A DNA stretch of 64,000 nt from Alphaproteobacteria bacterium (GCA_020638555.1 JACKII010000006.1:137140-201139), one strand, 5' to 3'; positions 6,195-63,746 are shown, counted from the stretch's first letter. Numbers and translations: made by a program. Notes: a model not told the origin generated them from the sequence alone.

Positions 6195-9100
6195 CTAAGT
6201 GGCGGTCCCTCCCGCGCCGTGAGAAGGCTCGGTCCCGGAGCGCGGCCCCGGCTCCCCGTCCTGGTCGGCGTTCGGGAAGAGCTTGTGGCCGCCGAAGATT
6301 TTCCGCTCCCGAATCCATTCGAACACCGCATAGAGCATCGGGATCATGAAGATGCCGAACATCGCCGAGGCCAACATGCCGAACAACACCGGCATGCCCA
6401 CGGCGAACATGCTGTCCGCACCGGGGCCTTGTGCGACCACCAACGGGATCAGGCCGGCGATGAAGGCGAAGCTGGTCATCATCACCGGGCGGAAGCGCTG
6501 GTGGGCGCCGGTGACCGCGGATTGCTGGATGCTTTGTCCTTCGGCCCGTCGCGCCAGCGAGAACTCGGTCATCAGGATCGAGTTCTTGGCGGCCAGGGCG
6601 ATCAGCACGACGATGCCGATCTGGGCGTAGAGCACGAAGCTCATATCGGCCAACTGAACGCCGATCATCGCCCCCAGCACCGCGACCACGACCGATAGCA
6701 GCACCGGGATCGGCACGTTCCAGCTTTCGTACAGCGCCACCAGAAAGAGGAAGGCGAACACGATCGCAAACCCGATCACGATCGGCGTTTGCCCCGCCGA
6801 CTCGACCTGCTCCAGGGCCTGGCCGGTCCATTCGTAGGCATAGCCGCGCGGAAGGTCCTTATTCGACAGGTCCTCCATCGCCGCGATGGCATCGCCGTCG
6901 CCATAGCCGGGGCCGGCACTGCCATTGATGGAGATCGCACGATAGTTGTTGTAGCGCACGATCGACCGGGCGCCGACCTCCAACGTGGCCCGCGCCACCG
7001 CCGACATGGGGACCATGGCGCCGGTGTTGCTCTTGACCTTGATGTCGTAGATCGAGTCGATGGTGTTGCGGAACTGCTTCTCGCCCAGCAGCCGCACGGT
7101 CCAGGTTCTGCCGAACAGGTTGAAGTCGTTGACGTAGAACCCGCCCAGCGTGGTTTGCAGCGCCTGGAACACATCGGACAGCTTCAGGCCCAGCACCTGC
7201 ACCTTGTCCCGGTCGATATCCAGCCGGACCTGGGGGGTCGACGCGTCGAAGGTGGAGAACACCCGTTGCAGTTCCGGCCGTTGGTTCGCCTGAACGATGA
7301 TGTTGCGCATGGTCGCCGCCATTTCGCTGGGCGATTGGCCGGTCAACCCTTCGAGGATGTACTCGAACCCGCCGGTCTGGCCGATGCCGGAGATGGCAGG
7401 TGGGTTCAGCGGCAGGAAATAGCCTTCCGTCAGGGGGGCGAGAGACCGGGTCAGGCGGTTCACCACGGCCGTGGCGTGCAGGTCCGGCGTGACCCGCTCC
7501 TCATAGGGCTTCAACCGGATGAACAGGATGCCGGAACTTGACGATGCGCCGCCGCCCAGGAAATCGAAGCCGGCCACCGAGACCACGGTCTGCACTGCCG
7601 GATCGGCGCTGACGATTTTCTGCGCCTTTGCTGCTGCGGCTTCCGTCCGGTTGAGCGACGCGCCGGGCGTCAGCCCGAACACCGCCATGATATAGCCCTG
7701 GTCTTCTTCCGGCAGGAAGCCGGACGGCGTCGTGGAGAACATATACAAGGTGCCGCCTGCCAGGGCAGCGACCAGCACGATGCTCATCACGGCGACGCGC
7801 ACCAGGCGGGCCACGACCCAGCCATAGCCGTCGCCGACCCGATTGATGCCGTTGGTGACGACGCGCATGATGCGGCCAGGATGGCCAGGCCGCAGGATGA
7901 GGGTGCAGAGGGCAGGGGATAGCGTCAGCGCGTTGATGGCCGAAATCACCATCGCCGCAGAAATCGTGATGGCGAACTGGCGGAACAACACGCCGCTGGA
8001 GCCGGGCAGGAAGGCGATCGGCACGAACACCGACAGCAACACCAAGGTGATGGCGATCACCGGGCCGGTGATTTCGGCCATGGCCTTGTGGGTCGCTTCG
8101 GCGGGCGAAAGGTGCGGTTCTTCCTCCATCACCCGTTCGACATTCTCGACCACGATGATGGCGTCGTCGACGACGATGCCGATGGCCAGGACCAAGGCGA
8201 GGAGGGATATGGTGTTGGCCGAGTAGCCAAACGCCAGCAGCACCGCAAAGGTGCCGATCACGGCAACCGGCACCGCCAGCAGCGGAATCACGGTCGGGCG
8301 CAGGCGGCCGAGGAAGACAAACACGACGATGGCGACCAGGATGAACGCTTCCACCAGGGTGTGAACGACCTTGTCCATCATCGCCGAGACGAACTCGGCC
8401 GTGTTGTAGATATAGGCGTAGGTTACGCCTTCGGGGAAGCGGGGTTTCAGATCCTCCAGGCGCTGGGCCACCGCTTTGGCGACCGCAACCGCATTGGCGC
8501 CAGGCGACAGATAGATGCCGATGGCGGCGACGGGGCGGCCCTCGAACCGGGCCGTGGTATCGTAGTTGGCCGCGTCCAACTCGACGCGCCCGATGTCTTT
8601 GATCCGGACCAGCGCGCCGTTGCTGTCGCTGCGAAGCACGATGTTCTCGAATTCCTCGGCGGAGGTCAGGCGGCCCTTGGTGGTGACCGTCAACTGCAGC
8701 CGCTGGTCCTTGCTGAGCGGCGCCGCACCGATCCGGCCGGCCGCGGCCTGGAGGTTCTGAGACTTGATCGCGGCGATGATTTCCGCACTGGAGAGCTCAT
8801 AATTGGCGAGCTTTTGCGGATCGAGCCAAATGCGCATGGAATAATCCTGCGCGCCAAAAATGGTAACATCGCCAACGCCGGGAACGCGCTTCAACTCGTC
8901 CAGGATCGAGATGGTGACGAAGTTGGAAAGAAACAGGTTATCGTGCTCGGGGTTGTTCGAATAGAACATGAACACCTGCAACAGGCTGGTCGAAACCTTT
9001 TTGATCGACAAACCTGTTGATCGAACTTCTTCCGGCAACTTGGTTTCAACCAGGCTGGCCCGGTTTTGCACGTTGACGGTGGCGATGTCCGGGTCCTGGC

Positions 9101-9392
9101 TCAGGTCGAAACTGACATTCAGGCGGTAGGAGCCGTCGCTTCCCGACGTCGACTTCATATACCGCATGCCCGAAACGCCGTTGATCGCGTTTTCGAGCTG
9201 CTGTGCCACGCTTTCTTCCACCGTTGGCGCATCGGCGCCGGAATAGGTGGCCGTCACCTGTACCGTTGGCGGGGCGATATCCGGGTATTGCGCGGTCGGC
9301 ATGACGGCGATCGCGATGGCGCCGGCCAGGGTGATGACCAGCGACACGACCATCGCCATGCGCGGACGTTTGATAAAGGTATCCGAAATCAT
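6195..9392 (-). CDS. RND multidrug efflux permease (AcrB/MexB, HAE1 family)
   Basis: 1065 aa. Canonical N-terminus MISDTFIKRPRMAMVVSLVITLAGAIAIAVMPTAQYPDIAPPTVQVTATYSGADA, with large periplasmic loops and a 12-TMS pattern. 11-nt gap to the upstream adaptor gene. Confidence 0.93.
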   Translation of the reverse strand: MISDTFIKRPRMAMVVSLVITLAGAIAIAVMPTAQYPDIAPPTVQVTATYSGADAPTVEESVAQQLENAINGVSGMRYMKSTSGSDGSYRLNVSFDLSQDPDIATVNVQNRASLVETKLPEEVRSTGLSIKKVSTSLLQVFMFYSNNPEHDNLFLSNFVTISILDELKRVPGVGDVTIFGAQDYSMRIWLDPQKLANYELSSAEIIAAIKSQNLQAAAGRIGAAPLSKDQRLQLTVTTKGRLTSAEEFENIVLRSDSNGALVRIKDIGRVELDAANYDTTARFEGRPVAAIGIYLSPGANAVAVAKAVAQRLEDLKPRFPEGVTYAYIYNTAEFVSAMMDKVVHTLVEAFILVAIVVFVFLGRLRPTVIPLLAVPVAVIGTFAVLLAFGYSANTISLLALVLAIGIVVDDAIIVVENVERVMEEEPHLSPAEATHKAMAEITGPVIAITLVLLSVFVPIAFLPGSSGVLFRQFAITISAAMVISAINALTLSPALCTLILRPGHPGRIMRVVTNGINRVGDGYGWVVARLVRVAVMSIVLVAALAGGTLYMFSTTPSGFLPEEDQGYIMAVFGLTPGASLNRTEAAAAKAQKIVSADPAVQTVVSVAGFDFLGGGASSSSGILFIRLKPYEERVTPDLHATAVVNRLTRSLAPLTEGYFLPLNPPAISGIGQTGGFEYILEGLTGQSPSEMAATMRNIIVQANQRPELQRVFSTFDASTPQVRLDIDRDKVQVLGLKLSDVFQALQTTLGGFYVNDFNLFGRTWTVRLLGEKQFRNTIDSIYDIKVKSNTGAMVPMSAVARATLEVGARSIVRYNNYRAISINGSAGPGYGDGDAIAAMEDLSNKDLPRGYAYEWTGQALEQVESAGQTPIVIGFAIVFAFLFLVALYESWNVPIPVLLSVVVAVLGAMIGVQLADMSFVLYAQIGIVVLIALAAKNSILMTEFSLARRAEGQSIQQSAVTGAHQRFRPVMMTSFAFIAGLIPLVVAQGPGADSMFAVGMPVLFGMLASAMFGIFMIPMLYAVFEWIRERKIFGGHKLFPNADQDGEPGPRSGTEPSHGAGGTAT

Positions 9393-9403
9393 GGGGGTCG
9401 GAC

Positions 9404-10555
9404 CTAGCCGTCTTTAGAGGGATTGCCGTCAGGGTCCGTCGCCATTTGCGGCGCAACCTTGCCGCCGGGACGGGCATTCTGGTGGCCGCTGACGATCACG
9501 CGATCACCCTTTTCGAGGCCGGATTTGACGACGATCACCGATCCGCGTTGCTCGCCCACGATCAGGCGTTTGATGCGCACCGTGTCATCCTTGTCGACGA
9601 CCAGCGCATAGGCGCCCTGCTGGTCCAGCAACAGGCCGGCCTGTTGCATCACCAGTTTCTCCTCCGGCGCCTTGCGGACAACCTCGACATTGACCAGTTG
9701 CTGGTCGACCAGCAACTGGTCCGGATTGGGGATGCTGGCGCGGACCTCGACCGAGTCGGTGGCCGCCGACGCCTGGACATCCGCGAACTGGATATGGCCC
9801 TTGTGGGGGTAGAGCGAGCCATCCCCCAGATGGAGTTGCACATAGACGCTGTCGGCACCCTCGCCGATTTTCTGCACCTGCAACAGCAGCCATTGCGGCA
9901 CCGGGAAGCGTACGAAGATCGGGTCTTGCGCCACCAGCATCACCAGGGGTCCGCTGGACGGCCCCACCAGATTGCCCACGGAATAGGCCGAACGGCCGAT
10001 GCGGCCGTCCATGGGCGCGCTGATCTTGGTGTAACTGAGATTCAGGCGCGCAGTGCCCAGGTCCGCCTTGCGGGCCTGAAGGTTCGCCTGCGATTGCGCC
10101 AGGTTCGCGGCGGCTTCGTCCAGGCTGGCCCGGGCGACGTTGTTGCGGCTCGCCAGCGCTCTCATCCGGTCGAAGGTTTGGTTGGCCAGTGTCACCGCGG
10201 CTTCGGCGCTGACGACATTGGCTTCGGCCTGTTGCTCCGCCAGTTGAAACGTGTCGGGTTCGATTTGGTACAGCAATTCGTCTTTTTTGACGTCCGCGCC
10301 TTCCTCGAACAGCCGCGCCTTCAAGAACCCTTGCACGCGCGCCCGGACTTCCACCTTGTCGATGGCTTCGACGCGACCGGAGAATGTGCGGGTGTTGGTC
10401 AGGTCCTTCAATTCGGCCGGCGCCACGACCACCGACGGCGGAGGCGGCGGCGCTGTCTGACTCTGCGCCTGCTTCTCATCGCAGCCCGAGAGCAACCCTG
10501 CGGCGAGTAACATCAAAACTGCCGGGACGGCAAAGCGCATTCTCGCTCTCTCCAT
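9404..10555 (-). CDS. RND efflux periplasmic adaptor (membrane fusion protein, AcrA-type lipoprotein)
   Basis: Lipobox LLSGC after a hydrophobic signal. Coiled-coil hairpin region (AEQQAEANVVSAEAAVTLANQTFDRMRAL, AQSQANLQARKADLGTARLNLSYTKISAPMDGRIG). Alternative start ATG 10540 (MRFAV) also has a good RBS. Confidence 0.9.
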   Translation of the reverse strand: MERARMRFAVPAVLMLLAAGLLSGCDEKQAQSQTAPPPPPSVVVAPAELKDLTNTRTFSGRVEAIDKVEVRARVQGFLKARLFEEGADVKKDELLYQIEPDTFQLAEQQAEANVVSAEAAVTLANQTFDRMRALASRNNVARASLDEAAANLAQSQANLQARKADLGTARLNLSYTKISAPMDGRIGRSAYSVGNLVGPSSGPLVMLVAQDPIFVRFPVPQWLLLQVQKIGEGADSVYVQLHLGDGSLYPHKGHIQFADVQASAATDSVEVRASIPNPDQLLVDQQLVNVEVVRKAPEEKLVMQQAGLLLDQQGAYALVVDKDDTVRIKRLIVGEQRGSVIVVKSGLEKGDRVIVSGHQNARPGGKVAPQMATDPDGNPSKDG

Positions 10556-10929
10556 GAACCAAACTTCCTCGGTTTGCCATATCGGTAAAACGGTGCGGTA
10601 GCGTCAGCGAAACTGCTTACCCAAATCAGCGAGCTTCCCTATTACCCGGACTCGGGTATGTGCACAACAATAACACGTTGTCGCACTTTGTCTTTTGCGG
10701 CAGTATAGTAGCAACGGTGACGGTGAGCAACCATTGGTGAAAGTCTTCTAAACACCATCGACACCGAAGCGGGATGCGACCGGGGTTTTGTCGGCAGTGC
10801 TGATCAAATTTGTCTATATGCCACGCGCCGGCAGGTCTGTGGGGAGGGGCGCGGGTGCCGGGGCAATTGTCGCTGGCGTATCTCGGTCCGCTCGGCGTAA
10901 GATTTCCCCGAATAACGGAGGAAACAGCC

Positions 10930-11506: not shown

Positions 11507-11893
11507 ATGCCCAAGCGCCAGAGCATCGAAATCCCCGGCTTCAGCCACGCCAACCCGATTCCGGGCGCGAGCCGCATCGGCAATCTGATGATGTCGAGCG
11601 TCATCGGCGGCCGGGACCCGGGCGCAAGCACCATGCCGCCGGATCTTGGCGGGCAGATCGCCAACGTCTTCACCCATATCCGCAGCGCCATGGCGGCGGC
11701 GGGCGGCTCGCCGGACAATATCCTGCGCATCACGTTTTATGTGCGGGATGCGGCGGAGGGCCGGGCAGCGCTGAACGGCGAGTGGGAGAAGATGTTCCCA
11801 GACCCCGAGTCCCGCCCCGCCCGGCACACCATCGCCGTGCCCGGCAGCGGTCCCGGTCTGGTCTCGTGCGAGTTCGTGGCGGTGCTGGACTGA
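11507..11893 (+). CDS. RidA/YjgF/UK114 family protein
   Basis: 128 aa. The size and pattern (GNLMMSSVIGG ... QIANVFTHIRSAMAAAGGSPDNILRITFYV ... CEFVAVLD) fit the RidA-like fold. Confidence 0.7.
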   Translation: MPKRQSIEIPGFSHANPIPGASRIGNLMMSSVIGGRDPGASTMPPDLGGQIANVFTHIRSAMAAAGGSPDNILRITFYVRDAAEGRAALNGEWEKMFPDPESRPARHTIAVPGSGPGLVSCEFVAVLD

Positions 11894-22131: not shown

Positions 22132-22206
22132 TGGTGACCCCTAGGGGAATCGAACCCCTGTTTTCAACGTGAGAGGCTGACGTCCTAACCGCTAGACGAA
22201 GGGGCC
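22132..22206 (-). tRNA. tRNA-Glu (anticodon CUC)
   Basis: 75 nt: GGCCCCTTCGTCTAGCGGTTAGGACGTCAGCCTCTCACGTTGAAAACAGGGGTTCGATTCCCCTAGGGGTCACCA. It folds as a cloverleaf: acceptor GGCCCCT/AGGGGTC, anticodon stem TCAGC/GTTGA, loop CTCTCAC, T-loop TTCGATT, encoded CCA. Confidence 0.92.
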
Positions 22207-54484: not shown

Positions 54485-54574
54485 GGATGGGTGGCAGAGT
54501 GGTTGATTGCACCGGTCTTGAAAACCGGCGTGCGTGCAAGCGTACCGTGGGTTCGAATCCCACCCCATCCGCCA
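54485..54574 (+). tRNA. tRNA-Ser (anticodon UGA)
   Basis: 90 nt: GGATGGGTGGCAGAGTGGTTGATTGCACCGGTCTTGAAAACCGGCGTGCGTGCAAGCGTACCGTGGGTTCGAATCCCACCCCATCCGCCA. Acceptor GGATGGG/CCCATCC, anticodon stem CCGGT/ACCGG with loop CTTGAAA, a long variable arm, and encoded CCA. Confidence 0.93.
54561..54574 (+). repeat. attL core (3' end of tRNA-Ser)
   Basis: CACCCCATCCGCCA, identical to 63387..63400. Confidence 0.8.
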
Positions 54575-54685
54575 GATTTCGCATGTATCTCATTGAAATA
54601 ACGCGATTTGGCTTAGGTCTGTCCGCCATTTCTTCCCCCAGAATTGCGCCCGATCAGGCGCCCCGTTGCTTATCGGTCGCGACGG

Positions 54686-55186
54686 CTAGTTGGTAACGGC
54701 TTGGTTGGGTGCGGCTTCTGCATCGGGTGCCACGTCGGCCGAATAATCCGCCAACGCCTGGAGCCGCACCGCCGCATTGGCGGCGCTCCGCAGGATCAAA
54801 AAGTGATCGTTGCGGATGGAGCCTTTGAGGCGGTCACACATCGGAGCCAAGAGGACCGCTGCGACCTCTGCGTCTTCCGATATGGACGCCATGGCGTTCT
54901 CGAATTCGGTCAATCGGTTGAACGCATTGGCTTTGGACTCTGCGTCGGCTGCAAGAGTGTTGCTGGCCTCGGTCCCGATCCGCTTAAAGGCTTCGCTTGC
55001 GGCGCTCAACTGTAGGTCCGTCGCCCGGTCGATGCGGCCGGGTGCGTCCATGATATGCCCCAGTATGAGCACGCCAAGTGCGGCTTCTACTCTGGCCTCG
55101 CCAGAACGTATCTTGAGGCGGTCGACGGCCGGTCCCCAATCACTGGGCTGCGATGCGGTCCCCATGTTGGTGTTTGTGTAGGGCAT
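54686..55186 (-). CDS. Hypothetical protein (166 aa, helical, no recognised domain)
   Basis: ORF with ATG 55186, divergent from the XRE gene across a 50-nt spacer. No motif that I recognise. Confidence 0.55.
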   Translation of the reverse strand: MPYTNTNMGTASQPSDWGPAVDRLKIRSGEARVEAALGVLILGHIMDAPGRIDRATDLQLSAASEAFKRIGTEASNTLAADAESKANAFNRLTEFENAMASISEDAEVAAVLLAPMCDRLKGSIRNDHFLILRSAANAAVRLQALADYSADVAPDAEAAPNQAVTN

Positions 55187-55217
55187 TGTCTCGGACTCCT
55201 GTTATGGATATGCTTCC

Positions 55218-55234
55218 GTCACTCTCAAGGTGAC
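55218..55234. promoter_or_regulatory. Palindrome GTCAC-N7-GTGAC (candidate operator) abutting the XRE gene start
   Basis: GTCACTCTCAAGGTGAC at 55218..55234 lies 2 nt before ATG 55237, within the 50-nt divergent spacer. Confidence 0.35.
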
Positions 55235-55236
55235 AT

Positions 55237-55485
55237 ATGAACAATAGCCGCAATCGAGACATGGTGACAAGTGCACAAATTCGAGCCGCACGCGGGCTCC
55301 TAGCCTGGACTGTCCGCGACCTTGCCGAAAAGGCGGGGGTGCACCGGAACACGGTGACACGCATCGAGACGGAGGCCACGTCGCCAGGCCATGCCCTCGC
55401 CTCGATCCGAGCCGCGCTTGAGGCCGGCGGCGTGGTGTTTCTGGACGCGAACGGGAACGGCCCCGGCGTGGCGCTGAGGCGCTGA
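55237..55485 (+). CDS. XRE-family helix-turn-helix transcriptional regulator
   Basis: 82 aa. SAQIRAARGLLAWTVRDLAEKAGVHRNTVTRIE is a classic HTH_XRE. Confidence 0.85.
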   Translation: MNNSRNRDMVTSAQIRAARGLLAWTVRDLAEKAGVHRNTVTRIETEATSPGHALASIRAALEAGGVVFLDANGNGPGVALRR

Positions 55486-55539
55486 GCCAGCCCCGGACGG
55501 GTGCACCATCAACCAGTTCGACAGAGAGGACCGCAGCCG

Positions 55540-55689
55540 ATGACGATCAACCAATTCCGCGGCCTGCTGTACCGTATCGCGAAATACAGCGGAGACATGC
55601 AGGCCCTGACCAGCAAGCGCCCCGGCGCGGTCCAGCGCAGGATCTGGCGCCGCATCCTCGGCAAGCTGCTTGGCCGGGCGTGGCGCTGA
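55540..55689 (+). CDS. Small basic hypothetical protein (49 aa)
   Basis: Within ORF 55501..55689. ATG 55540 (MTINQFRGLLYRIAKYSGDMQALTSKRPGAVQRRIWRRILGKLLGRAWR) has a GAGAGGA RBS. Coding status is uncertain. Confidence 0.4.
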   Translation: MTINQFRGLLYRIAKYSGDMQALTSKRPGAVQRRIWRRILGKLLGRAWR

Positions 55690-55946
55690 GGCGCTGAACG
55701 ACGGTCTTCCCCTTTGGCGTGCCGCGTCGGCGGTGAGCCGGGCGACACCCTTGGACCACTGCCGGGAAAACCATTCCAATTTTGGCATGCGCAAAAGTTT
55801 TGCCCCCCGCCGGTCCTGGCGCGGATCGCGGTAGACTTTCGACCACCCCCCACCGCCGCCGGGCGTGATCCTGGCGGGCACGCGCCTGAAATCGGGGCGC
55901 CCGTGTGAGCCGGTGGGAGGGGGGTATCTGATCTCTCGACCACCCT

Positions 55947-57323
55947 TCAAGGACCGGCGGGTCCCGACATTATGCAAAAGCGTAAGAAAACGAAGCTGCA
56001 AAAAAACCCGCCGGCAATTTTCGTACCGGCGGGCCTTGCTTTGACGTGCTGGCGGGGCCGGAGCCCCGCCCGCTCGCCTGGGTTATCCGTGACGGCGGTC
56101 ACGGTGTAGAACGCGCCGGATGCGCCACGGCCACATCGGCCCGCAGGGACGCAACGAAAGCGTATTGATGATTGGCTGCATAGGTCTCGCAACAGTTCGA
56201 CCTGAAGCCCTGTCCGCATGCCGATCATCAAGTGCTGGAAATTGCCGGCGAAGATCGTGGATCTGTCTGAGCTGGTGCCGCCATCGGTCGGAACGGCCGT
56301 GGTGGTCAACTGTGGGATCGCGCTCAGCGCTGCCGGGGCCATGAGCGGCTGGCCGGTCGAGTCCGTGAGGCCGGCCAGGGTGCCCTCATCGCGCGGGTGC
56401 AGGATCGCGGCTGTTACCGGTCCCGCATTCGCGGTCAGGATGGCCGTGCGACCGGCCAGCAGCGGCCCATAGTTGGCCAGGTCGGCGCCCAGCGCCGCCG
56501 TGCCGATGCCCGAGGTATTGGCGATGCCTCTCGGCTCGGGCGCGGTGCCGGAGCCCAGCAGCGCCACCCGGTCGAGTTCCGTCGCCAGGGCCGCGGCCAG
56601 AAGCTGCGGCAGTGCGGTTTCGAGGTTCAACGAGTCCTCGATCAGCTCGCGGCTGACCTTGACCAGAACCGCCAGGCTGCGCGGGGTGAAGACGACAGCG
56701 CGAAACGTCGGGTCGCTCTCCGCAACCGCGGCATTTTCAGAGCGCCAGGCCGGCGCCGGATCGCTGGCCACCGCCGCGATGGAGTTCGTGGCGCTGGTCA
56801 GCGGCACGGTGCGGGCGCCGGCCTGGACGGTCACGCTCGCCGCCCGAAGATTGTCGAGCAGTTCCGCCGAAACAACCGCCGGAACGCTGTAGCCGCCGGC
56901 GGAATCGCTGCCCTCGGCAAGCGCGCGCCGCTCGGTCTCGGTTTTTCCTCCGAGGATCATCGACCGCAAATAGGCGCCGGCGCTCAGGCCGCGATAGGGG
57001 TCGGGCTGGTGCTTCGCCGCCCAGTCGAGCATGCGCTGTTCCGGCGCCAGGCCGAAGGGCGGCGCAGCACCGCGCTCCCACACGCCGCCGCCGGCGCTGC
57101 CGCCGTCATCCTCGCCGCCGGTCACGTCGGCATAGGGCGGCCGGCGCATTTTCGACAGATCGGCCGAGAGCCGGTCGCGCTCGGCCATCGCGGCATCAAA
57201 CCGGGCCTCGATTTCGGCCGCGCGTTCCTTGGTCGTCGCGGCCTGGCCCATTTCATCGGTCAGGGCTCGGCATTCGGTGTCGAGCGCCTGGATATGGTCG
57301 ACGATTTTTTTTTCGTCGGTCAT
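55947..57323 (-). CDS. HK97-fold phage major capsid protein with frame-disrupted 3' end (possible pseudogene or indel error)
   Basis: ORF 55947..57590; preferred start is ATG 57323 (MTDEKKIVDHIQALDTECRAL, a coiled-coil delta-like N-terminus). The capsid core reads GGYSVPAVVSAELLDNLRAASV ... LAVLVKVSRELIEDS ... HPRDEGTLAGLTDSTGQPL ... MIGMRTGLQVELLRD. After ~56185 the conserved tail YAANHQYAFVASLRADVAVAHPA is readable only in the +1 frame. The track frame runs on through a terminator hairpin. Confidence 0.8.
   Translation of the reverse strand: MTDEKKIVDHIQALDTECRALTDEMGQAATTKERAAEIEARFDAAMAERDRLSADLSKMRRPPYADVTGGEDDGGSAGGGVWERGAAPPFGLAPEQRMLDWAAKHQPDPYRGLSAGAYLRSMILGGKTETERRALAEGSDSAGGYSVPAVVSAELLDNLRAASVTVQAGARTVPLTSATNSIAAVASDPAPAWRSENAAVAESDPTFRAVVFTPRSLAVLVKVSRELIEDSLNLETALPQLLAAALATELDRVALLGSGTAPEPRGIANTSGIGTAALGADLANYGPLLAGRTAILTANAGPVTAAILHPRDEGTLAGLTDSTGQPLMAPAALSAIPQLTTTAVPTDGGTSSDRSTIFAGNFQHLMIGMRTGLQVELLRDLCSQSSIRFRCVPAGRCGRGASGAFYTVTAVTDNPGERAGLRPRQHVKARPAGTKIAGGFFCSFVFLRFCIMSGPAGP
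56000..56033 (-). terminator. Rho-independent terminator downstream of the capsid gene
   Basis: Minus strand reads CCCGCCGG-11 nt loop-CCGGCGGG followed by T7 (plus-strand A-tract 56000..56006; stems at 56007..56014 and 56026..56033). Confidence 0.75.
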
Positions 57324-57456
57324 GTGATGTGCTCCATGCCGCCCCTTTGGCGGCGTTCGGAGTTGATCAGCTTCCGGCTTTCGCCTTCGGCCTACCTCCC
57401 GAAATTCGGCGTGTCGGGGTGTCACGCTATGCCCCGAGGGGCATTCCATGTGCCGG

Positions 57457-57807
57457 TCAGCAGCGGCCGGCGGGTGTTTCATCGATCGCCGCGGCCATCG
57501 CCACCAGCGCCTTGGCTGCCGCGGGGCCTTTGACCTTCGCGTAAAGCTGCAAGCCGGAGACAAGCCAGGCGGTGACGAAGACTTCGGCATCTCCGCCGGC
57601 TGCGTCTGCTGCCTTCACGGCATCCGCCCAAAGTTCGCGTGCAATCCGAATTTGTTCATGATCTGCATTATACATGAGCTTTGCTCGTATTCCTATGACG
57701 TGGTGGTGTGTTGCGCCGGCATCGGTGGTCAGTCGGCCGGCGGCGTGCATGCGCGCCTCTGCCGCCGACGCTCGGGCTGGCGTCCGGCACATCGCCAGCG
57801 CTGCCAT
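57457..57807 (-). CDS. Hypothetical protein (116 aa; alternative 72-aa form from ATG 57675)
   Basis: ORF between the iteron array and the capsid gene. The C-terminal part MYNADHEQIRIARELWADAVKAADAAGGDAEVFVTAWLVSGLQLYAKV looks protein-like. RBSs for both starts are weak. Confidence 0.45.
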   Translation of the reverse strand: MAALAMCRTPARASAAEARMHAAGRLTTDAGATHHHVIGIRAKLMYNADHEQIRIARELWADAVKAADAAGGDAEVFVTAWLVSGLQLYAKVKGPAAAKALVAMAAAIDETPAGRC

Positions 57808-57877
57808 TTCCGCTTGATCGCGGGGTTGCCCGCCATCGCGTGCCGGCCCGGCTGGGTTTGGTCCATGTGATTTCCTG

Positions 57878-58069
57878 TGGGACCAGTGGGACAGGTGGGA
57901 CCGGGTTGTTTTTGCTGGTAGATTCCAGTCCCACTATGTGCGGCCCGTGTGGGACAGGTGGGACCGGTCGAGGGCATGTGGTCCCACATGTCCCACCGCC
58001 ATGGACCACTGTGGGACCGAGAAAACCACGCAATATCAACGTGGTCCCACCTGTCCCACCTGTCCCACC
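57878..58069. repeat. Iteron array of 12 GTGGGAC heptamers (6 forward, 6 reverse); candidate replication origin/initiator-binding region of the element
   Basis: Forward copies at 57878, 57887, 57896, 57950, 57959 and 58012. Reverse copies (GTCCCAC) at 57929, 57982, 57991, 58045, 58054 and 58063. Spacing within clusters is 9 bp. All six forward/reverse pairs are mirror-positioned about 57973.5. Confidence 0.8.
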
Positions 58070-58089
58070 GATATTCGCGGGTGGCAGTG

Positions 58090-59820
58090 TCAGTCATCAC
58101 CCGCACCCATGATCGAGGCCGTGACCGCATAGGCGCGGGGCCGGCCATGCTTGAGGCTCATGCGACGGGTGAGGTGTCGCCCATCGCCTCCTTCGAGGTA
58201 GCCGGCGTCATGAAGATATCGCGCCGCCCGCTGTGGATCGGCGCCGCGGTGAACCTCGCGCCAGGCGTCGGCGGCGACGTAATAGGTTTCTCCCTCGCGC
58301 CACCCGGCCCGGTTCGGGATCGCGGGCCGCGGGTCGCCGCCGGGGTCCAGTCGCTCAAAGCGCGCATCGCCATGGGTGACCAGGAACGCGCGCACGCGCT
58401 CGATGGCCTCGCGGGCTTCGGCCGGCCCGGCACCGCCGCGGCCGTCGATCCACAGGCCGAGAATATGCATTGCAGCGTCATGCGCCGCCCCTCGTGGCCA
58501 CCCCGTGAGATCGAAGATGGTCGCCAGTTCTCCGGCGGCGGCGATCAGGCCCAGGCGAGCGGCGGCCCGCTGTGTCTGACCATCTGCCTCGACGCCATGC
58601 AATTCCACCGCGTCACGGCGAAACGTCTCCATCGCCTCGCGGGCCGTCGCTTTCGCCGCCTCGGGGTCGTCGAGAAATTTCGCGACGAATGCCGGCCCGG
58701 CCGTGCCGTGGGCAGTGGCGGTTGTCGCCCGAACGCGGTCGGCAAATGCTGCAGCGCTCTCCGAGCCATGCAGATGGTCGAATGCGCCATGTTGGCCGGC
58801 GTCGGCCGACACATCGAGAAGGCGCACATGCTGCCCGGCATGGGTGCGGCCGCCGGCCTCCGCGATCTTGTCTGCCAGACAAATTTCGCCACTGGACAAG
58901 ATCATCGTGCGCCATCGCTTTTGCGGCCGGGCTGCGCCCGTTCGATCCGCCCGCGCTTTGCCGATGCCGTTGGCGATCATATAGGCCGCTTGTGCCGCCT
59001 CTCGGCCGGAGACTTCGCCCATTTCGTCCAGGGCCAGCACCGAGCCGTTGCAGGCCGTCGCCAGGGCCTCCAGGCCGTTGGCGGTCGCCCGCCAGCTTTG
59101 CAGGAAAGCGGGGCCGCCCCAGACCGACGCCGCCGCCCGCTGGATCGTGCTCTTGCCGCTGCTCGATGCGCCGCGAAGATGCAGGCCGCCGCCATCGAGG
59201 CCAAGCGGTTCGAGCAGCGGCCCGGCGAGGGCGAGCGAGACGGCGGCGACCATCAGCGGATTGCCGACGCAGAGCGCCGCGACCTGGCCGCGCCAGTCCG
59301 CGAGATCACCGGCCGCCACCATAGCCGTCGCGGCGCTGCTGATCGTCTCGGCCTGAAACACGGCGCGCTCGTCGCCGATCACCTCGCCACTGCCGAGAAC
59401 GAAGCTGCGGCAGGTCTCGTCGGACCATCCCAGCCGGTCGACCGATAGGGCGCGGTCCTTGGGCCGCCAGCGCTGTAGCAGGTCGGCGAGCGCATATCGG
59501 GCGGCCGGGCCAGGCGCGATGTAAAGCCCAAGGTCCAGCAGCTTGGCGCGCAGTTCGGCGCCGTCGCCCGCGAACATGCGTGCGGGGATCGCCCAAACAT
59601 GGGCATTGCCGTCCGAGTCGATGACTTCCACCAGCCGGCCCCATCCCGCGCCGGATCGGTCGCGGGTCAGGGCCAGAACGTGAAGTTCCGAGCAAACAAG
59701 GGGGGCGCGGCGGTTGCCTTCATCATCTTCGACGATACGATGAATGTCGCCGTTCGGTCGCGCCTCGAAGCCAGTGGGCAGTGGCGAAAAATTGATCCTG
59801 GTCACGTTGGATGCCGTCAT
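58090..59820 (-). CDS. DUF927-type replicative helicase/ATPase (SF3-like, P4 alpha C-terminal-like)
   Basis: ORF 58090..60030. Preferred start is ATG 59820 (MTASNVTRINFSPL), forming an ATGA overlap with the primase stop. Walker A LRGASSSGKST and Walker B-like VLALDEMGE. Confidence 0.8.
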   Translation of the reverse strand: MTASNVTRINFSPLPTGFEARPNGDIHRIVEDDEGNRRAPLVCSELHVLALTRDRSGAGWGRLVEVIDSDGNAHVWAIPARMFAGDGAELRAKLLDLGLYIAPGPAARYALADLLQRWRPKDRALSVDRLGWSDETCRSFVLGSGEVIGDERAVFQAETISSAATAMVAAGDLADWRGQVAALCVGNPLMVAAVSLALAGPLLEPLGLDGGGLHLRGASSSGKSTIQRAAASVWGGPAFLQSWRATANGLEALATACNGSVLALDEMGEVSGREAAQAAYMIANGIGKARADRTGAARPQKRWRTMILSSGEICLADKIAEAGGRTHAGQHVRLLDVSADAGQHGAFDHLHGSESAAAFADRVRATTATAHGTAGPAFVAKFLDDPEAAKATAREAMETFRRDAVELHGVEADGQTQRAAARLGLIAAAGELATIFDLTGWPRGAAHDAAMHILGLWIDGRGGAGPAEAREAIERVRAFLVTHGDARFERLDPGGDPRPAIPNRAGWREGETYYVAADAWREVHRGADPQRAARYLHDAGYLEGGDGRHLTRRMSLKHGRPRAYAVTASIMGAGDD

Positions 59821-60725
59821 GCCGCCACCTCGCGGCGGAGCAGGTCGTTGAAGTCCGATCCGGCAGGCGGTTGCAGCAGCGTCACCTCCCAGGCCCAGCC
59901 GTGCGCACGGTCCGCCAGGGCGTAGGCCGCGCGCCGGCCGGCCTGATCGCGATCCAACGCGACGACCAGGCGACCAGGAGTCCTCGGCAGTTTCACCTGC
60001 TTCATGTTGGAGCTGCTGATCGCTGCCCAAATCCGAGCGTCGGGCTCGACGAAGCCGCCGGGAATAGCAGACAGGGCGGTTTCGATGCCTTCGGCGATGA
60101 CCAACGGTCCGCGCCCAACGGTCAGGCGCACGGCGCCTCCGCGGACCGGGCCAAGCGCTCGCTTCTGGTCATTGCTGCCCACAGGCGCTTTGCCGGTGCC
60201 GTCGCGGTCCAGATAGATGCGGTGGACCGCAAAGCCATCGCCGCCCTGGACCAGCGCGACGACGGCGGGCCAGCACATTTTCGACGGCGTGTGCCAGCAG
60301 GCCGACAGGTATCGAAGCGTGCCGGGCAATTCGCAGTCGATGCCGCGAGTTCGCAGATATCGCTCGCCCAACGTGCCATGGATCGGCCTGGCCTCACGCC
60401 AGATGCGTTCGGCGAAGCGTGAACTCTCTGCCCGGACGGCCTGGCGCTCGGCGTTGAGTTGGGCGACCGCCACCGGGTCGGGTGCTGCATGCGAGCCCGG
60501 CGCGACGCCAGCCGCCGCCAGGACATCGCGGAAGGTGCACTGGCTTTTCTTGCAGTGCAACAACAGCCGGCCACGGCTATCGGCCAAGGTCAGGGCGTTT
60601 TGATCGCGGCGCCGCTCCGGCTGGCAGACGGGGCAAGGGCAGGTGCCGTAGTGGCCGTACCAGCGGCCGCCCAGCGCCTTGGTCAGGGATTGGGCGTCGG
60701 CTCGTTCGAGAATGGCGGTGGTCAT
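59817..60725 (-). CDS. Zinc-ribbon + Toprim domain DNA primase-like protein
   Basis: Zinc ribbon YGTCPCPVCQPERRRDQNALTLADSRGRLLLHCKKSQC. Toprim motifs PLVIAEGIETALS and VVALDRDQAGRRAA. Confidence 0.8.
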   Translation of the reverse strand: MTTAILERADAQSLTKALGGRWYGHYGTCPCPVCQPERRRDQNALTLADSRGRLLLHCKKSQCTFRDVLAAAGVAPGSHAAPDPVAVAQLNAERQAVRAESSRFAERIWREARPIHGTLGERYLRTRGIDCELPGTLRYLSACWHTPSKMCWPAVVALVQGGDGFAVHRIYLDRDGTGKAPVGSNDQKRALGPVRGGAVRLTVGRGPLVIAEGIETALSAIPGGFVEPDARIWAAISSSNMKQVKLPRTPGRLVVALDRDQAGRRAAYALADRAHGWAWEVTLLQPPAGSDFNDLLRREVAA

Positions 60726-60910
60726 CGGCCGCCCTCCCGATCCGTCGCGGATGTGGTGCCGCAGCCCGTCTCTAGCGCCATCGTCTCGTGGCTTGCATTT
60801 GTCACCACGGCCGCTACATTCAGGGCTTCCGCAGCAATCGCCCCCTCATGATTGCGTAGCCCCGCGCCGGTCTGACCACCGGCCGGGGCGTTTCTTTGTC
60901 CGCCTCCCAT
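60722..60910 (-). CDS. Small hypothetical protein (62 aa), doubtful
   Basis: ATG 60910 lies directly after the alpA stop, and the stop overlaps the primase start (ATGA). The sequence is Gly/Ala-rich, the RBS is weak, and no motif was recognised. Confidence 0.3.
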   Translation of the reverse strand: MGGGQRNAPAGGQTGAGLRNHEGAIAAEALNVAAVVTNASHETMALETGCGTTSATDREGGR

Positions 60911-60912
60911 GA

Positions 60913-61131
60913 TCAGGCTGCCTTGTCGGCTTCGCGGCTGGCGATCCACGCTTCAATGTCTTCGCGCCGCCACCCAATGGCGCGCGCACCGAGCTTGATG
61001 GGCGCAGGGAACTGCCCAGCCTTTACTTGGTCGTAAACCCAAGAGCGCCCCATGCCGATGGCGGCTAGCACCCGGGGAAAGCGCCAAACTTCATTGTGCA
61101 TTGTTAATGCCTCTCGCGTGTTAGTGGACAT
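60913..61131 (-). CDS. alpA: AlpA-family phage regulatory protein/excisionase (HTH_17)
   Basis: 72 aa. RFPRVLAAIGMGRSWVYDQVKAGQFPAPIKLGARAIGWRREDIEAWI is the AlpA/Xis-type winged HTH signature. Confidence 0.85.
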   Translation of the reverse strand: MSTNTREALTMHNEVWRFPRVLAAIGMGRSWVYDQVKAGQFPAPIKLGARAIGWRREDIEAWIASREADKAA

Positions 61132-61201
61132 GCGAAAGGTAGAAAGCCACCAATGGCAGCGACTAAGGCAAATTTCCGGAAAATTTAGCGCCGACCGCGA
61201 A

Positions 61202-61960
61202 TTATCCTAAGGTCTTCTCGGATCGTCCTCTGTGATATGGATTTTTTTTGTCGGCATCTGATTTTTCGTACCATTCAGTTACTTTGAGCACTAACCACTT
61301 CTGCAAAGCATTGTCTGTCGCATGTTTTTCTTGGTGCATAATTTCTTTAATATAGTCTCTCCGTTTTTCTGACTGTTTTCTTCGTGAACTGACGCTTTCA
61401 CTTCTGCCGGAATCGCTCCATCCGTATCTTTTCATTCCCAATAGAATTGACGGCTTGTATTTCGTTCGCCAATGCCATTCCTCTGTAAGAGCGCCTAAAG
61501 CAATAGCGAAATGCATCTGGCCCGCGCCCCCTGCATTCCTTCGCAGGTCCTCGATTGTTTCGATTGCCCTTGCCGCATACCACGGATCGGAGAACGGTTC
61601 CGAGAAGTTCCTCGCAAATTCGGTCACATGGGCGAAACCGAACCCACCTTCTTTGATCTTCTGAATGGGCGGGCAGTTTGGATCGCTGGTTTGCCACCAA
61701 GTGTTGCGGTCCTTGTATACCACACGCTCTTGCCCGTGCGGGAGGCCCGCCGCCTTCAATACCGAGTGGCACTCAGCCCAAAGCGCGTCGATCTCGCTCC
61801 AGATTGTTGCTAGGGCCAATTCTCTCGCCTCGAACGACTCTTTTACGATCCCCACCTTCTGTTGAATTGGCATGTCGTCCCAATCGGGCTCTTGCCAATG
61901 GCCCAAGCGGGTTAATTCATCGCCCCCCTTGTCGATCCATTCTCGTTTTTTATCAGTCAT
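61202..61960 (-). CDS. Hypothetical protein (252 aa), low-GC cargo gene translationally coupled to int
   Basis: ATG 61960..61958 overlaps the int stop (ATGA). The 3' half (61201..61500) is about 41% G+C by hand count. Trp/Lys-rich, with no recognised domain. Confidence 0.7.
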   Translation of the reverse strand: MTDKKREWIDKGGDELTRLGHWQEPDWDDMPIQQKVGIVKESFEARELALATIWSEIDALWAECHSVLKAAGLPHGQERVVYKDRNTWWQTSDPNCPPIQKIKEGGFGFAHVTEFARNFSEPFSDPWYAARAIETIEDLRRNAGGAGQMHFAIALGALTEEWHWRTKYKPSILLGMKRYGWSDSGRSESVSSRRKQSEKRRDYIKEIMHQEKHATDNALQKWLVLKVTEWYEKSDADKKNPYHRGRSEKTLG

Positions 61961-63243
61961 ATAGAGGCCCTCAGTTGAACAAGTTTCTCGGCCCCCTTCC
62001 CCTCCAGGAATCGGCCCCAGGCTTCTAGCATCCCGCGCCGCCGCTCCAGCATGTCAGATCGGCGGTAGGCTCTTTCGACTTCCGTGCCGACCGTGTGCGC
62101 GAGAGCGATTTCCGCCATGTCGCGCGGGTATCCCCGCTCATCCGCCCAATCGCGGAATGTCGAGCGTATTCCGTGAGGTACAGCGGGCCGTTTGCTTCGG
62201 GGGTCAAGATACCCTTCCCTCCCCGCGTCGGCCTCTGCCTTGTGAATGCGGCGCGTGACGGCCGACAGGCTCATATCCGAGAGGGGTCCACCGCGCGGGG
62301 CAAAGAACACGACCTCCGAACCCTCCAGTCGCGGCAGCCGGGACAGCAATGCGACGGCCTCTTGTGTCAGGGGGACTCGATGCTCGCGGCCCGCCTTCAT
62401 GCGTTCCGCTGGGATGGTCCAAACTGCGGCGCTTGGGCTGGGGCCTGGCGATCCAAGATCGACCTCACCCCATACCATGCCCCGCACTTCGCCGGATCGG
62501 CATGCGGTCAGCGTCAGGAATTGCAGCGCCTGTGCTGCCATCCCTGCCCTGCCCTGTAGGTCTTCCCACCAGCGCGGCATGTCGGCCAAAGCGACGGCCG
62601 GGTGGTTTCCCGCTCGTGCTACCCTGGCGGGCTTGGGCAGGACTTCCGAAAGGTTGCCCTTCCATCGCGCCGGGTTGTCGCCCTCCCGATAGCCGGCAAC
62701 GGTTGCCCAGGATAGCACCGCCTCGATGCGCCCTCGAAGCCGCGAGGCCGTCTCGGTCTTGGTCGACCAGATCGGCTCAAGGACACGCAGAATATCGCTC
62801 ATGGTGATCGACCGGACGGGCAATTCCCCTAGCGCCGGCCGGGCGTAGGTGTCCAAGGTGGAGCGCCATTGCTTCTGGTGTTTCTCGTTGCGGAATTCAT
62901 CCAGCTTCGAGGCCAGATACTTTTCCACCGCCTGCTGAAAGGTCAGGGCATCCCGCTGCCTCTGCTTTTCCGCCAGCGGGTTTCCGCCGCCTCGAACGAT
63001 CCGCTTATTCTCGAACGCCGCTTCGCGCGCATCGGCCAGCGACACCAGAGGCGGGCTGCCAAGGCCAAGTTCCCGCCGCTTCCCATGAATGGTGAGCCGC
63101 TGCACCCAGAACCGCGAGCCGTTCGGTTCGACCCGCAGGTAAAGGCCGAACCCGCCGCCGTCATGATGCTTCCCCGGCCCTGCGGATTTCACCCTCGCGG
63201 CGGTAAGCGTCTTGGCTGCCCGTCGTTCCATCGCCCTGGCCAT
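61957..63243 (-). CDS. int: Tyrosine recombinase, P4-type integrase with DUF4102 arm-binding N-terminus
   Basis: HDGGGFGLYLRVEPNGSRFWVQRLTIHGKRRELGLG is DUF4102-like. Catalytic blocks TACRSGEVRGMVW, HGIRSTFRDW and ALAHTVGTEVERAYRRSD. Confidence 0.92.
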   Translation of the reverse strand: MARAMERRAAKTLTAARVKSAGPGKHHDGGGFGLYLRVEPNGSRFWVQRLTIHGKRRELGLGSPPLVSLADAREAAFENKRIVRGGGNPLAEKQRQRDALTFQQAVEKYLASKLDEFRNEKHQKQWRSTLDTYARPALGELPVRSITMSDILRVLEPIWSTKTETASRLRGRIEAVLSWATVAGYREGDNPARWKGNLSEVLPKPARVARAGNHPAVALADMPRWWEDLQGRAGMAAQALQFLTLTACRSGEVRGMVWGEVDLGSPGPSPSAAVWTIPAERMKAGREHRVPLTQEAVALLSRLPRLEGSEVVFFAPRGGPLSDMSLSAVTRRIHKAEADAGREGYLDPRSKRPAVPHGIRSTFRDWADERGYPRDMAEIALAHTVGTEVERAYRRSDMLERRRGMLEAWGRFLEGKGAEKLVQLRASI

Positions 63244-63386
63244 TCTTCCTCCATTTCTTCCCCCTCAATGACGCGGATTTGAGCGTATCAGAGCGGACGA
63301 CAATGGACAAGAGAAGTCAAATAACCGCTTATTTTCAATGGGATTTGTGAACATTCGCGAACATCGCCGGATTCGACGATGGCGGA

Positions 63387-63400
63387 CACCCCATCCGCCA
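63387..63400 (+). repeat. attR core (duplicated tRNA-Ser 3' end)
   Basis: CACCCCATCCGCCA, identical to 54561..54574. The upstream GGATTCGA partly echoes the tRNA T-arm GGTTCGAA. Confidence 0.8.
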
Positions 63401-63413
63401 ATCTCGGTCGCTG

Positions 63414-63746
63414 TTATCCCATCATCCGGTAGTTCAGGTCGAACATTACCCATATCGCGCCGGCGATGATGATCGCGCCAATCACCACCGCCAATGTCAG
63501 GGCGATCGTGGCCTCCAGCGGCACGCGCTTGGTCGAATAGTGCAGAAAATACCGCAGATGCACCAGGATCTGTGCCAGCGCGAAGACCGTGACGATGAGA
63601 AAGGTGCCGGATTTGCCCACATCGCCGGCGGCCACGACATAGAACGGGACGCCGGTCAGGGCGATGGCCAACAGGAAACCCGTGAGATAGTCCGCTATTG
63701 GGGGCTTGTGCAGAAAGAATGGCAGGTCTTCGTCGCGGTCGCTCAT
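63414..63746 (-). CDS. cyoD: Cytochrome o ubiquinol oxidase subunit IV
   Basis: 110 aa with three TM helices. YLTGFLLAIALTGVPFYVV ... ALAQILVHLRYFLH is typical of CyoD. ATGA overlap with the upstream cyoC. Confidence 0.82.
   Translation of the reverse strand: MSDRDEDLPFFLHKPPIADYLTGFLLAIALTGVPFYVVAAGDVGKSGTFLIVTVFALAQILVHLRYFLHYSTKRVPLEATIALTLAVVIGAIIIAGAIWVMFDLNYRMMG

Follow-up and report, generated by a model that had tools for sequence, protein, structure and literature searches.

Between a tRNA-Ser(UGA) gene and cyoD, the DNA analysed here (64,000 nucleotides of an Alphaproteobacteria bacterium, GCA_020638555.1 JACKII010000006.1:137140-201139, henceforth the window) carries an integrated element of 8.8 kb that is probably a phage satellite. 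It would have the architecture known from phage-inducible chromosomal islands (PICIs) in Gram-negative bacteria, with a P4-type integrase that inserts it into the 3′ end of the tRNA gene, this end being restored by a core of 14 nt. Such an element would, we infer, depend on a helper and remodel its capsids. A preliminary description of this DNA had already proposed an integrative satellite of the P4 or PICI kind, and comparison with other genomes bears this reading out, in the order of the genes, in the repeats at tRNA genes, in the range of sizes and in the existence of circular relatives. Indeed, the family to which the element belongs is coherent, size-constrained at about 9 kb and mostly alphaproteobacterial, each member having a private capsid and a conserved small partner. 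In the satellite literature that we searched, the PICI-type satellites with experimental characterisation come from Firmicutes and Gammaproteobacteria only, and our literature search found no description of this alphaproteobacterial family.

An element bounded by two copies of a tRNA 3′ end

The core, CACCCCATCCGCCA, makes up the last 14 nt of the tRNA gene and is present in two exact copies, 8,826 bp apart. It has no other site in the 64-kb window, even with one mismatch allowed; at the same tolerance, shuffled controls gave 0.06 matches, and two copies appeared in none of 100 shuffles. The duplication of the tRNA 3′ end, part of the earlier description, was re-derived exactly, and the resumption of cyoD 13 nt past the right-hand copy is borne out by the gene call. 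The landmarks of both ends, with positions counted from the first letter of the window, are as follows.

54485-54574 (+): tRNA-Ser(UGA) gene, anticodon tga (ARAGORN; Rfam tRNA, 61 bits)
54561-54574 (+): attL core, 3′ end of tRNA-Ser, exact repeat
54626-54639 and 63251-63264 (+): CCATTTCTTCCCCC, candidate arm-type integrase site (k-mer comparison of both arms)
63387-63400 (+): attR core, copy of the tRNA 3′ end, followed after 13 nt by the 3′ end of cyoD
63414-63746 (-): cyoD (COX4_pro in the twin locus described below)

The right-hand copy of CCATTTCTTCCCCC lies just upstream of the int start codon. Its presence on both arms, together with clusters of 7-mers that relatives display between attR and int, suggests arm-type integrase sites. 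The motifs AAATAAC and CATTGAA are also common to both arms, near both att cores, and they are further candidates for arm-type binding of the integrase.

Genes of the element

The main genes between the repeats (int, orf252, alpA, primase, helicase, small open reading frame and capsid) are all on the minus strand and co-oriented. Annotation relied on Pfam, PHROGs and NCBIfam, with PADLOC for defence genes. The handles L001, L148 and L149 designate sibling assemblies that are introduced in the next section; ORF stands for open reading frame and HTH for helix-turn-helix.

61957-63243 (-): int, P4-type tyrosine integrase; Arm-DNA-bind_3 (formerly DUF4102), Phage_int_M, Phage_integrase; phrog_1
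61202-61960 (-): orf252, 252 aa, int-coupled; its start overlaps the int stop codon by 4 nt
60913-61131 (-): alpA, AlpA-family excisionase/regulator; PF05930 (1.7e-13); phrog_66
59817-60725 (-): primase, DUF7146 and Toprim_3 (Pfam, PHROGs, NCBIfam); its stop codon overlaps the helicase start codon
58090-59820 (-): DUF927 replicative helicase; PF06048 (8e-74); phrog_1139 (1.4e-81)
57877-58068: iteron array, putative replication origin; 12 GTGGGAC motifs, dyad-symmetric
57457-57675 (-): small ORF, 72 aa (97 aa from an upstream start), in a conserved position just upstream of the capsid gene
56083-57323 (-): HK97-type major capsid gene; PF05065 (3.7e-27); phrog_10; ORF extended to 55947 in this assembly
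56000-56035 (-): hairpin plus T-run resembling an intrinsic terminator, past the capsid gene; RNA fold -26.9 kcal/mol, z = -3.46
55540-55689 (+): orf49, 49 codons, very basic, downstream of the XRE gene; gene called in L001, L148 and L149
55237-55485 (+): XRE-family HTH regulator; HTH_3 (5.8e-7), HTH_31; repressor families in PHROGs
54686-55186 (-): orf166, 166 aa, accessory, adjoining the tRNA gene and divergent from the XRE gene

This agrees with the preliminary description, whose entire gene list, from the integrase and its coupled gene to the terminator, the XRE regulator and the ORFs of no known family, was found again by means of the three protein libraries, motif counting and RNA folding. 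Its statement that portal, terminase, prohead protease, tail and lysis genes are absent holds as well: no ORF of the element matched a family for any of these functions in Pfam or PHROGs, and queries with phage head-module proteins gave the same answer.

The replication module deserves particular attention. Its DUF927 helicase is kin to the SCCmec Cch1 helicase (NCBIfam) and has plasmid homologues of up to 47% identity. The iterons begin 22 nt past the helicase stop codon and run in the order three forward, one reverse, two forward, two reverse, one forward and three reverse; only three more copies of GTGGGAC are found in the other 63.8 kb. The anatomy of this array, seen directly, is that of a replication origin, and it presumably acts as one.

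An intact capsid gene behind an apparent lesion

In the window, the capsid reading frame shifts out near 56184 and back near 56115, which scrambles about 25 codons (three-frame translation), and the stop codon is lost, so that the ORF continues through the terminator as far as 55947. Lesions of this sort in this assembly, two frameshifts and the loss of the stop, would favour a decaying prophage remnant with one structural gene left. Yet the best protein match, P0001, is an intact protein of 414 aa with 99% identity, encoded in a contig from a metagenome-assembled genome (MAG; GCA_020425505.1, L001) that has the same element at the same cyoD/tRNA-Ser locus. Over 15,760 bp the window and L001 are identical save for five substitutions and eight deletions, all of them confined to 475 bp.

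55937-56412: patch of five CpG>CpA substitutions and eight short-repeat deletions (pairwise comparison with L001; L148 and L149 side with L001)

The substitutions are without exception CpG>CpA on the coding strand, while each deletion takes 1-2 nt out of a homopolymer or dinucleotide repeat. Two more assemblies, obtained independently from metagenomes (L148 and L149), match L001 (one mismatch, no gaps) and differ from the window alike. Because all three lack the patch, the capsid lesion is peculiar to the window assembly. The error spectrum and the tight clustering indicate that it is most probably unpolished, low-quality sequence of this assembly, and at most a very recent strain-specific lesion. 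Whatever its origin, we take the element as a type to have an intact capsid gene. The earlier claim of a disrupted capsid frame is thus correct for this sequence, where the disturbance is real, but it does not describe a trait of the element, since the 414-aa gene is intact in three other assemblies.

The confinement of the frame disruption to a single assembly also disfavours decay, which the preliminary description had kept as an alternative. Further facts go the same way. A defective prophage would be recognised by the remnants of several phage modules and by an idiosyncratic size; here no fragments of portal, terminase or tail genes are found in the element, and some 30 independent elements, spread over 14 different tRNA or tmRNA targets, keep the same compact order and size. 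Moreover, circular forms of relatives exist. We therefore consider the remnant hypothesis as largely refuted, and it is the one to which we give the least credit. More generally, when apparent pseudogenes are met in assemblies, sibling assemblies are worth comparing before "decay" is concluded.

Two of the sibling assemblies display a peculiarity of their own. Positions 1-111 of L148 are unmatched to the locus and join it at a GGCGGC low-complexity stretch in the delta-domain linker of the capsid gene; L149 breaks at the same stretch. We considered these breaks inside the capsid gene as a recombination boundary and rejected the idea: given the GGCGGC low-complexity stretch at this place, they are probably an assembly break or a chimera.

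A private clade of HK97-type capsids

The intact twin P0001 matches TIGR01554 (major_cap_HK97) at 1.5e-48, and its closest solved structure is HK97 gp5, delta scaffolding domain included. A motif invariant in the family, ERRALAEG[ST]DSAGGY, aligns with the HK97 N-arm that starts at the delta-domain cleavage site, and the protein would therefore begin with a delta (scaffolding) domain of about 133 aa. The cross-linking Lys169 of HK97 is not conserved (AVAESD vs LKPESD). The prohead protease of HK97 cuts the delta domain away. As the element has no protease, maturation of its capsid would need a helper enzyme. The protein belongs to Phage_capsid (PF05065/TIGR01554), its only match in the phage_coat clan, and not to the encapsulin families.

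Among 50,697 phage records this capsid clade has no member, the best match there having at most 31.5% identity; against phage records, a megablast search with the whole element likewise gave no match. Capsid relatives of 45-77% identity sit in 9-kb elements, and the clade appears to evolve within them. More distant capsids (38-51% identity) are found on IMG/VR contigs of about 10.3-10.8 kb that combine int, replication genes, terminase- or portal-like genes and the capsid gene, and that resemble the capsid-forming PICIs (cfPICIs) discussed below.

A family of elements of about 9 kb

Relatives of the capsid number 770 at E <= 1e-5 among the candidates scored, many of them on contigs of about 9 kb. 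A profile built from 23 relatives retrieved 63 loci in GTDB species-representative genomes. In about 25 loci an integrase of the same orientation is found 4-6 kb upstream of the capsid gene, and in most loci a tRNA gene is present on the opposite strand, 1.5-6 kb downstream of the capsid gene. The targets are tRNAs for Thr, Ser, Asn, His, Arg, Phe, Cys, Met, Lys, Leu, Ala, Val and Trp, as well as tmRNA; in 30 loci the tRNA 3′ end is repeated exactly (14-59 nt) at the far side of the element. When the phage-like outlier L066 is left out of these delimited loci, which leaves at least 29 elements besides that of the window, and the window element is added (n=30), the size is 9,351 ± 760 bp, with a range of 7,848-10,643. 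The integrase is tRNA-distal in 24 of the 30 delimited elements mapped: its place beside attR, singled out as unusual in the preliminary description, is in fact the family norm.

Hosts are mostly Rhodobacterales, with Rhizobiales/Hyphomicrobiales, Sphingomonadales and Caulobacterales also represented. A few delimited elements lie outside, in MAGs labelled delta proteobacterium and Planctomycetota and in Alloalcanivorax (Gammaproteobacteria). Two relatives were assembled as circular contigs: L043 (8,611 bp, terminal repeat of 77 nt) and, from IMG/VR, L075 (10,610 bp, repeat of 127 nt). Conserved order, repeats of tRNA 3′ ends, narrow size and circular forms together substantiate the earlier suggestion of an uncharacterised alphaproteobacterial satellite family.

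The architecture of the family was established by ORF calling and clustering, followed by Pfam and PHROG annotation. The conserved order is integrase, variable int-coupled gene, gene of the AlpA/HTH_17 type, replication module, short repeats, small ORF and capsid. Replication modules are swappable: AAA_25 (8 members), Prim-Pol with DUF3987 (5), D5_N/DUF5906 (5) or HTH_36 initiators (4) stand where the window element has Toprim and DUF927. Directly 3′ of the replication gene come short 7-mer repeats, as in L004, L025, L028, L038 and L051. The small ORF gave no match but itself in a word-indexed protein search and belongs to no family of Pfam, PHROGs, NCBIfam or PADLOC; local iterations of phmmer and hmmsearch recovered homologues in the same pre-capsid position in 22 other loci, with the shared motif GGD[IL]R.F..A…L.AE[VI]EGP and often a C-terminal Cys. 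We regard this pre-capsid ORF as a hallmark of the family.

What follows the capsid gene varies. Many relatives have a small terminase gene, terS, straight after it (cluster C4, phrog_83, 2e-11; Terminase_4 in 6 members), some an HNH endonuclease (phrog_2323, 1.7e-29), and some a tape-measure protein of about 600 aa (phrog_2854, 6e-85; TMP_2). One element of 10.6 kb, in Aliiruegeria lutimaris, encodes a homologue of the portal, flanked by the capsid gene and terS (L016:7428-8603), and is, by its gene content, intermediate between capsid-only and cfPICI-like elements. No gene for the large terminase (terL) or for a protease was detected in delimited elements other than L066, which has terL, portal and protease genes and which we rejected as a family member. 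By the same comparison, the window element is the minimal version of the family, with the capsid gene only. The terS, HNH, tape-measure and portal genes of the relatives point to tailed-phage helpers.

Among the carriers, Sulfitobacter mediterraneus DSM 12244, Silicibacter (Ruegeria) lacuscaerulensis ITI-1157, Aliiruegeria lutimaris DSM 25294 and a Marivita strain are culturable. They are tractable hosts for asking by what means one capsid gene, with neither portal nor protease beside it, can redirect the assembly of heads.

Individual relatives call for separate mention. The tape-measure-like genes that come after capsid and terS in elements of 9-10 kb are found at L022:11869-13602, L027:11207-13063 and L054:11620-13440; we found no mention of a tape-measure gene encoded by a satellite in the satellite literature. 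In L064, tRNA-Leu(caa) is called at both ends (2943-3027 and 11584-11667; ARAGORN), and these ends share an exact repeat of 59 nt, so that the att repeat covers most of the tRNA gene, against 14 nt in the window element. Three related capsid loci, L044, L045 and L046, occur in one chromosome (OY770021.1, Paracoccaceae MAG), which suggests that a genome may house several satellites of the family. An IMG/VR contig of 6.46 kb (L073:1-6460), circular with a 111-nt terminal repeat, has capsid, terS and HNH genes. Another one (L072:1-16140) was considered as a packaged concatemer and rejected, its two units of this kind being 85% identical and not a perfect repeat; it represents a tandem pair of elements or else a chimera of the assembly.

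Relation to known satellites

Gram-negative PICIs have been defined by int, a co-oriented alpA, pri/rep genes followed directly 3′ by the origin, capsid-morphogenesis and terS genes as options, and accessory genes (PMC6092414). Those of the 2018 study (Fillol-Salom et al.) were from Gammaproteobacteria only; capsid-protein homologues are present in EcCICFT073 and PmCI172, the latter making small heads of 38 nm (PMC6092414). The likeness to these two islands is extensive: int, alpA and pri/rep genes co-oriented at one end, an iteron origin 3′ of the replication gene, a lone capsid homologue, terS in many relatives, accessory genes at the far end, and neither tail nor lysis genes. In detail, the window element displays a tyrosine integrase at one end with att sites, AlpA downstream on the int strand, a primase/replicase with an iteron origin and a capsid homologue, and it conforms to the pattern also in having no tail, lysis, portal or large-terminase genes. 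There are differences, however. The family lives mostly in Alphaproteobacteria, spans 7.8-10.6 kb and uses tRNA 3′ ends; the window capsid is full length, with its delta domain, and of a clade unseen in sequenced phages; and the family has the pre-capsid small ORF, the int-coupled gene and, in some members, the tape-measure gene. In SatelliteFinder the PICI core consists of int, regulator, pri-rep, capsid-like and terS genes, and cfPICIs are told apart by portal, adaptor, connector and terL (PMC10085698). Four of these five core functions are found in the window element, and all five in several relatives; the word "Alphaproteobacteria" does not appear in the main text of that paper.

A capsid of their own, of the HK97 type, is also what cfPICIs have, with the same left half made of int, alpA and primase (10.1101/2022.09.08.507074, PMC10085698). 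Their head and packaging module is complete, comprising portal, protease or decoration protein, head-tail adaptor and connector, terL, terS and HNH. In the window element, by contrast, there is the capsid only, and portal, adaptor/connector, terL and protease/decoration genes were not detected; within the family, genes of the cfPICI type are limited to the outliers L016 (portal) and L066. Satellite phage P4, for its part, encodes no capsid protein. The window element shares with it a P4-type integrase with Arm-DNA-bind_3, an AlpA-like regulator, a primase-helicase replicon, integration at a tRNA gene and a size of about 10 kb, but it has neither sid nor psu, delta or epsilon (no ORF matched them in Pfam or PHROGs), and the families of replication proteins differ. 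Judged by gene content, the element falls outside the definitions of both cfPICIs and P4.

Other likenesses are looser. Ccm of SaPIbov5, to which PMC6092414 points as the precedent, is described there as a satellite homologue of HK97-fold capsids, the only structural gene, which sets small capsids. A lone satellite-encoded capsid homologue of that fold is what the window element has too, as far as that description goes; SaPIbov5 differs in being a Gram-positive Staphylococcus aureus pathogenicity island with another regulatory layout (stl/str). The Prochlorococcus tycheposons of PICI-like type (10.1101/2020.12.28.424599), which occur in metagenomes of the viral fraction too, are integrated at tRNA genes and combine a tyrosine recombinase with a primase/helicase and with either terS or a lone capsid; compared by description, they differ in host phylum and hallmark gene families. 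VEIMEs, integrative mobile elements that are encapsidated in virions, mostly lack capsid genes (10.1101/2022.07.26.501625).

Finally, temperate contigs of a "twilight" type, 8.9 ± 0.6 kb long, have been reported with capsid, int and replication genes only, and devoid of portal, terminase and tail (10.1101/2025.06.18.659913). In size and gene set the window element is similar, which would favour an autonomous, tail-less HK97 mini-virus of this type, packaging its own 9-kb genome without a helper. The capsids of the "twilight" contigs, which come from the gut, are encapsulin-like (Linocin_M18-type), whereas that of the window element, matching PF05065 only, with HK97 gp5 closest, is a classical HK97/TIGR01554 protein with a delta domain for which HK97 needs a protease. 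To our knowledge, packaging of double-stranded DNA into HK97 shells proceeds only via portal and terminase, and tailed particles are implied by the terS, HNH, tape-measure or portal genes that relatives have. We find a helper-free virus very improbable. Tycheposons with a lone capsid and "twilight" genomes may be seen as conceptual neighbours of the window element.

A plausible cycle and its helper

For the satellite that we think the element to be, the following cycle may be proposed. The XRE regulator would keep the element silent, until a signal from the helper phage turned on the operon that runs from int to capsid. Int and AlpA, perhaps with the orf252 protein, would then excise a circle of about 8.8 kb, using the att sites and genes that are seen in the sequence. 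The Toprim primase and the DUF927 helicase would replicate this circle, starting at the array of 12 iterons that lies 3′ of the helicase gene. The HK97-type capsid encoded by the element and its small partner would join head assembly, either building capsids or re-sizing them for a genome of about 9 kb, while the helper would supply portal, maturation protease, terminase and tail.

A more specific version holds that such elements are "one-gene capsid-forming" satellites, in which the private capsid clade and its partner of 70-100 aa form a small shell for about 9 kb of DNA on portal, protease, terminase and tail borrowed from the helper. We deem this version possible, if rather doubtful. That its helper might be, instead of a phage, a gene transfer agent resident in Rhodobacterales or other Alphaproteobacteria is quite unlikely: a sequence search of the PDB gave HK97 gp5 and other phage capsids, and no RcGTA capsid, hence no positive support for the link.

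Several observations weigh against a PICI-like satellite altogether. At 8.8 kb, the element is smaller than typical PICIs of 10-15 kb. No terS family was detected in it (Pfam, PHROGs, NCBIfam), nor was a cos or pac site identified. No helper phage was identified, and head-module proteins of six phage-like loci, used as queries, had no match in the 64-kb window. Exact searches for the core joined to the cyoD flank (attB or attR) in metagenome contigs, and for the core joined to the element end (attL or attP) in viral contigs, returned 0 matches each. Finally, orf252, orf166 and the small ORF belong to no library family, and orf49 is likewise without an assigned function.

Some of these points might suit an island of another kind, integrative and self-replicating, that is not mobilised by phage particles. 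Its capsid could serve as an anti-phage decoy or interfering protein, in the way that Ccm of SaPIbov5 poisons helper assembly, or form an encapsulin-like shell. No terS, cos site or helper was found for the window element, and its accessory slots are filled by genes without a known family. In EcCICFT073, deletion of the capsid homologue left interference unchanged (PMC6092414), which implies that such homologues can have non-obvious roles. Yet the sizes fall within 7.8-10.6 kb, a narrow range that suggests packaging as a constraint; in relatives the same capsid is accompanied by genes for packaging and virion functions (terS, HNH, tape-measure or portal); and the match to Phage_capsid/TIGR01554 rather than to encapsulin families speaks against a shell of the latter type. 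All in all, we judge a non-mobilised island improbable, and retain the satellite with Gram-negative PICI architecture as the better account of the element.

Accessory genes and minor observations

The gene coupled to int is remarkable for its composition: the G+C content of orf252 is 0.47-0.50, against about 0.66-0.70 in the rest of the element. Its family is rare, with 46 representatives in 1.84 billion proteins, and most homologues end in a DeoR-like HTH motif, "VSxRTIRRDL", which is lost or diverged in the window copy. The post-int gene of L005, L051 and L064 is homologous to orf252 (hhalign 96%, E = 1.4e-9), that of L004 is not. The protein has no family in Pfam, PHROGs, NCBIfam or PADLOC; its AlphaFold model is confident (predicted local distance difference test, pLDDT, 86) and has no structural neighbour in PDB or BFVD.

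The XRE gene is transcribed against the main operon and makes a candidate maintenance repressor. With orf49 it forms a small operon (55237-55689, +) convergent with the capsid gene. It also weakly resembles HTH families of the antitoxin type (HipB and MqsA classes), and a toxin-antitoxin-like or switch function is possible for the pair. PADLOC recognised no defence system in the accessory genes, and gave generic HTH matches for the XRE gene only. As for orf166, it appears to be an orphan: it has no family in Pfam, PHROGs, NCBIfam or PADLOC and only its self-match among 5.8 billion proteins, and its AlphaFold model is helical and of low confidence (pLDDT 45).

An Rfam scan returned the tRNA only; besides tRNA-Ser(UGA), the window has a second tRNA gene, tRNA-Glu(ctc), at 22132-22206 (-).

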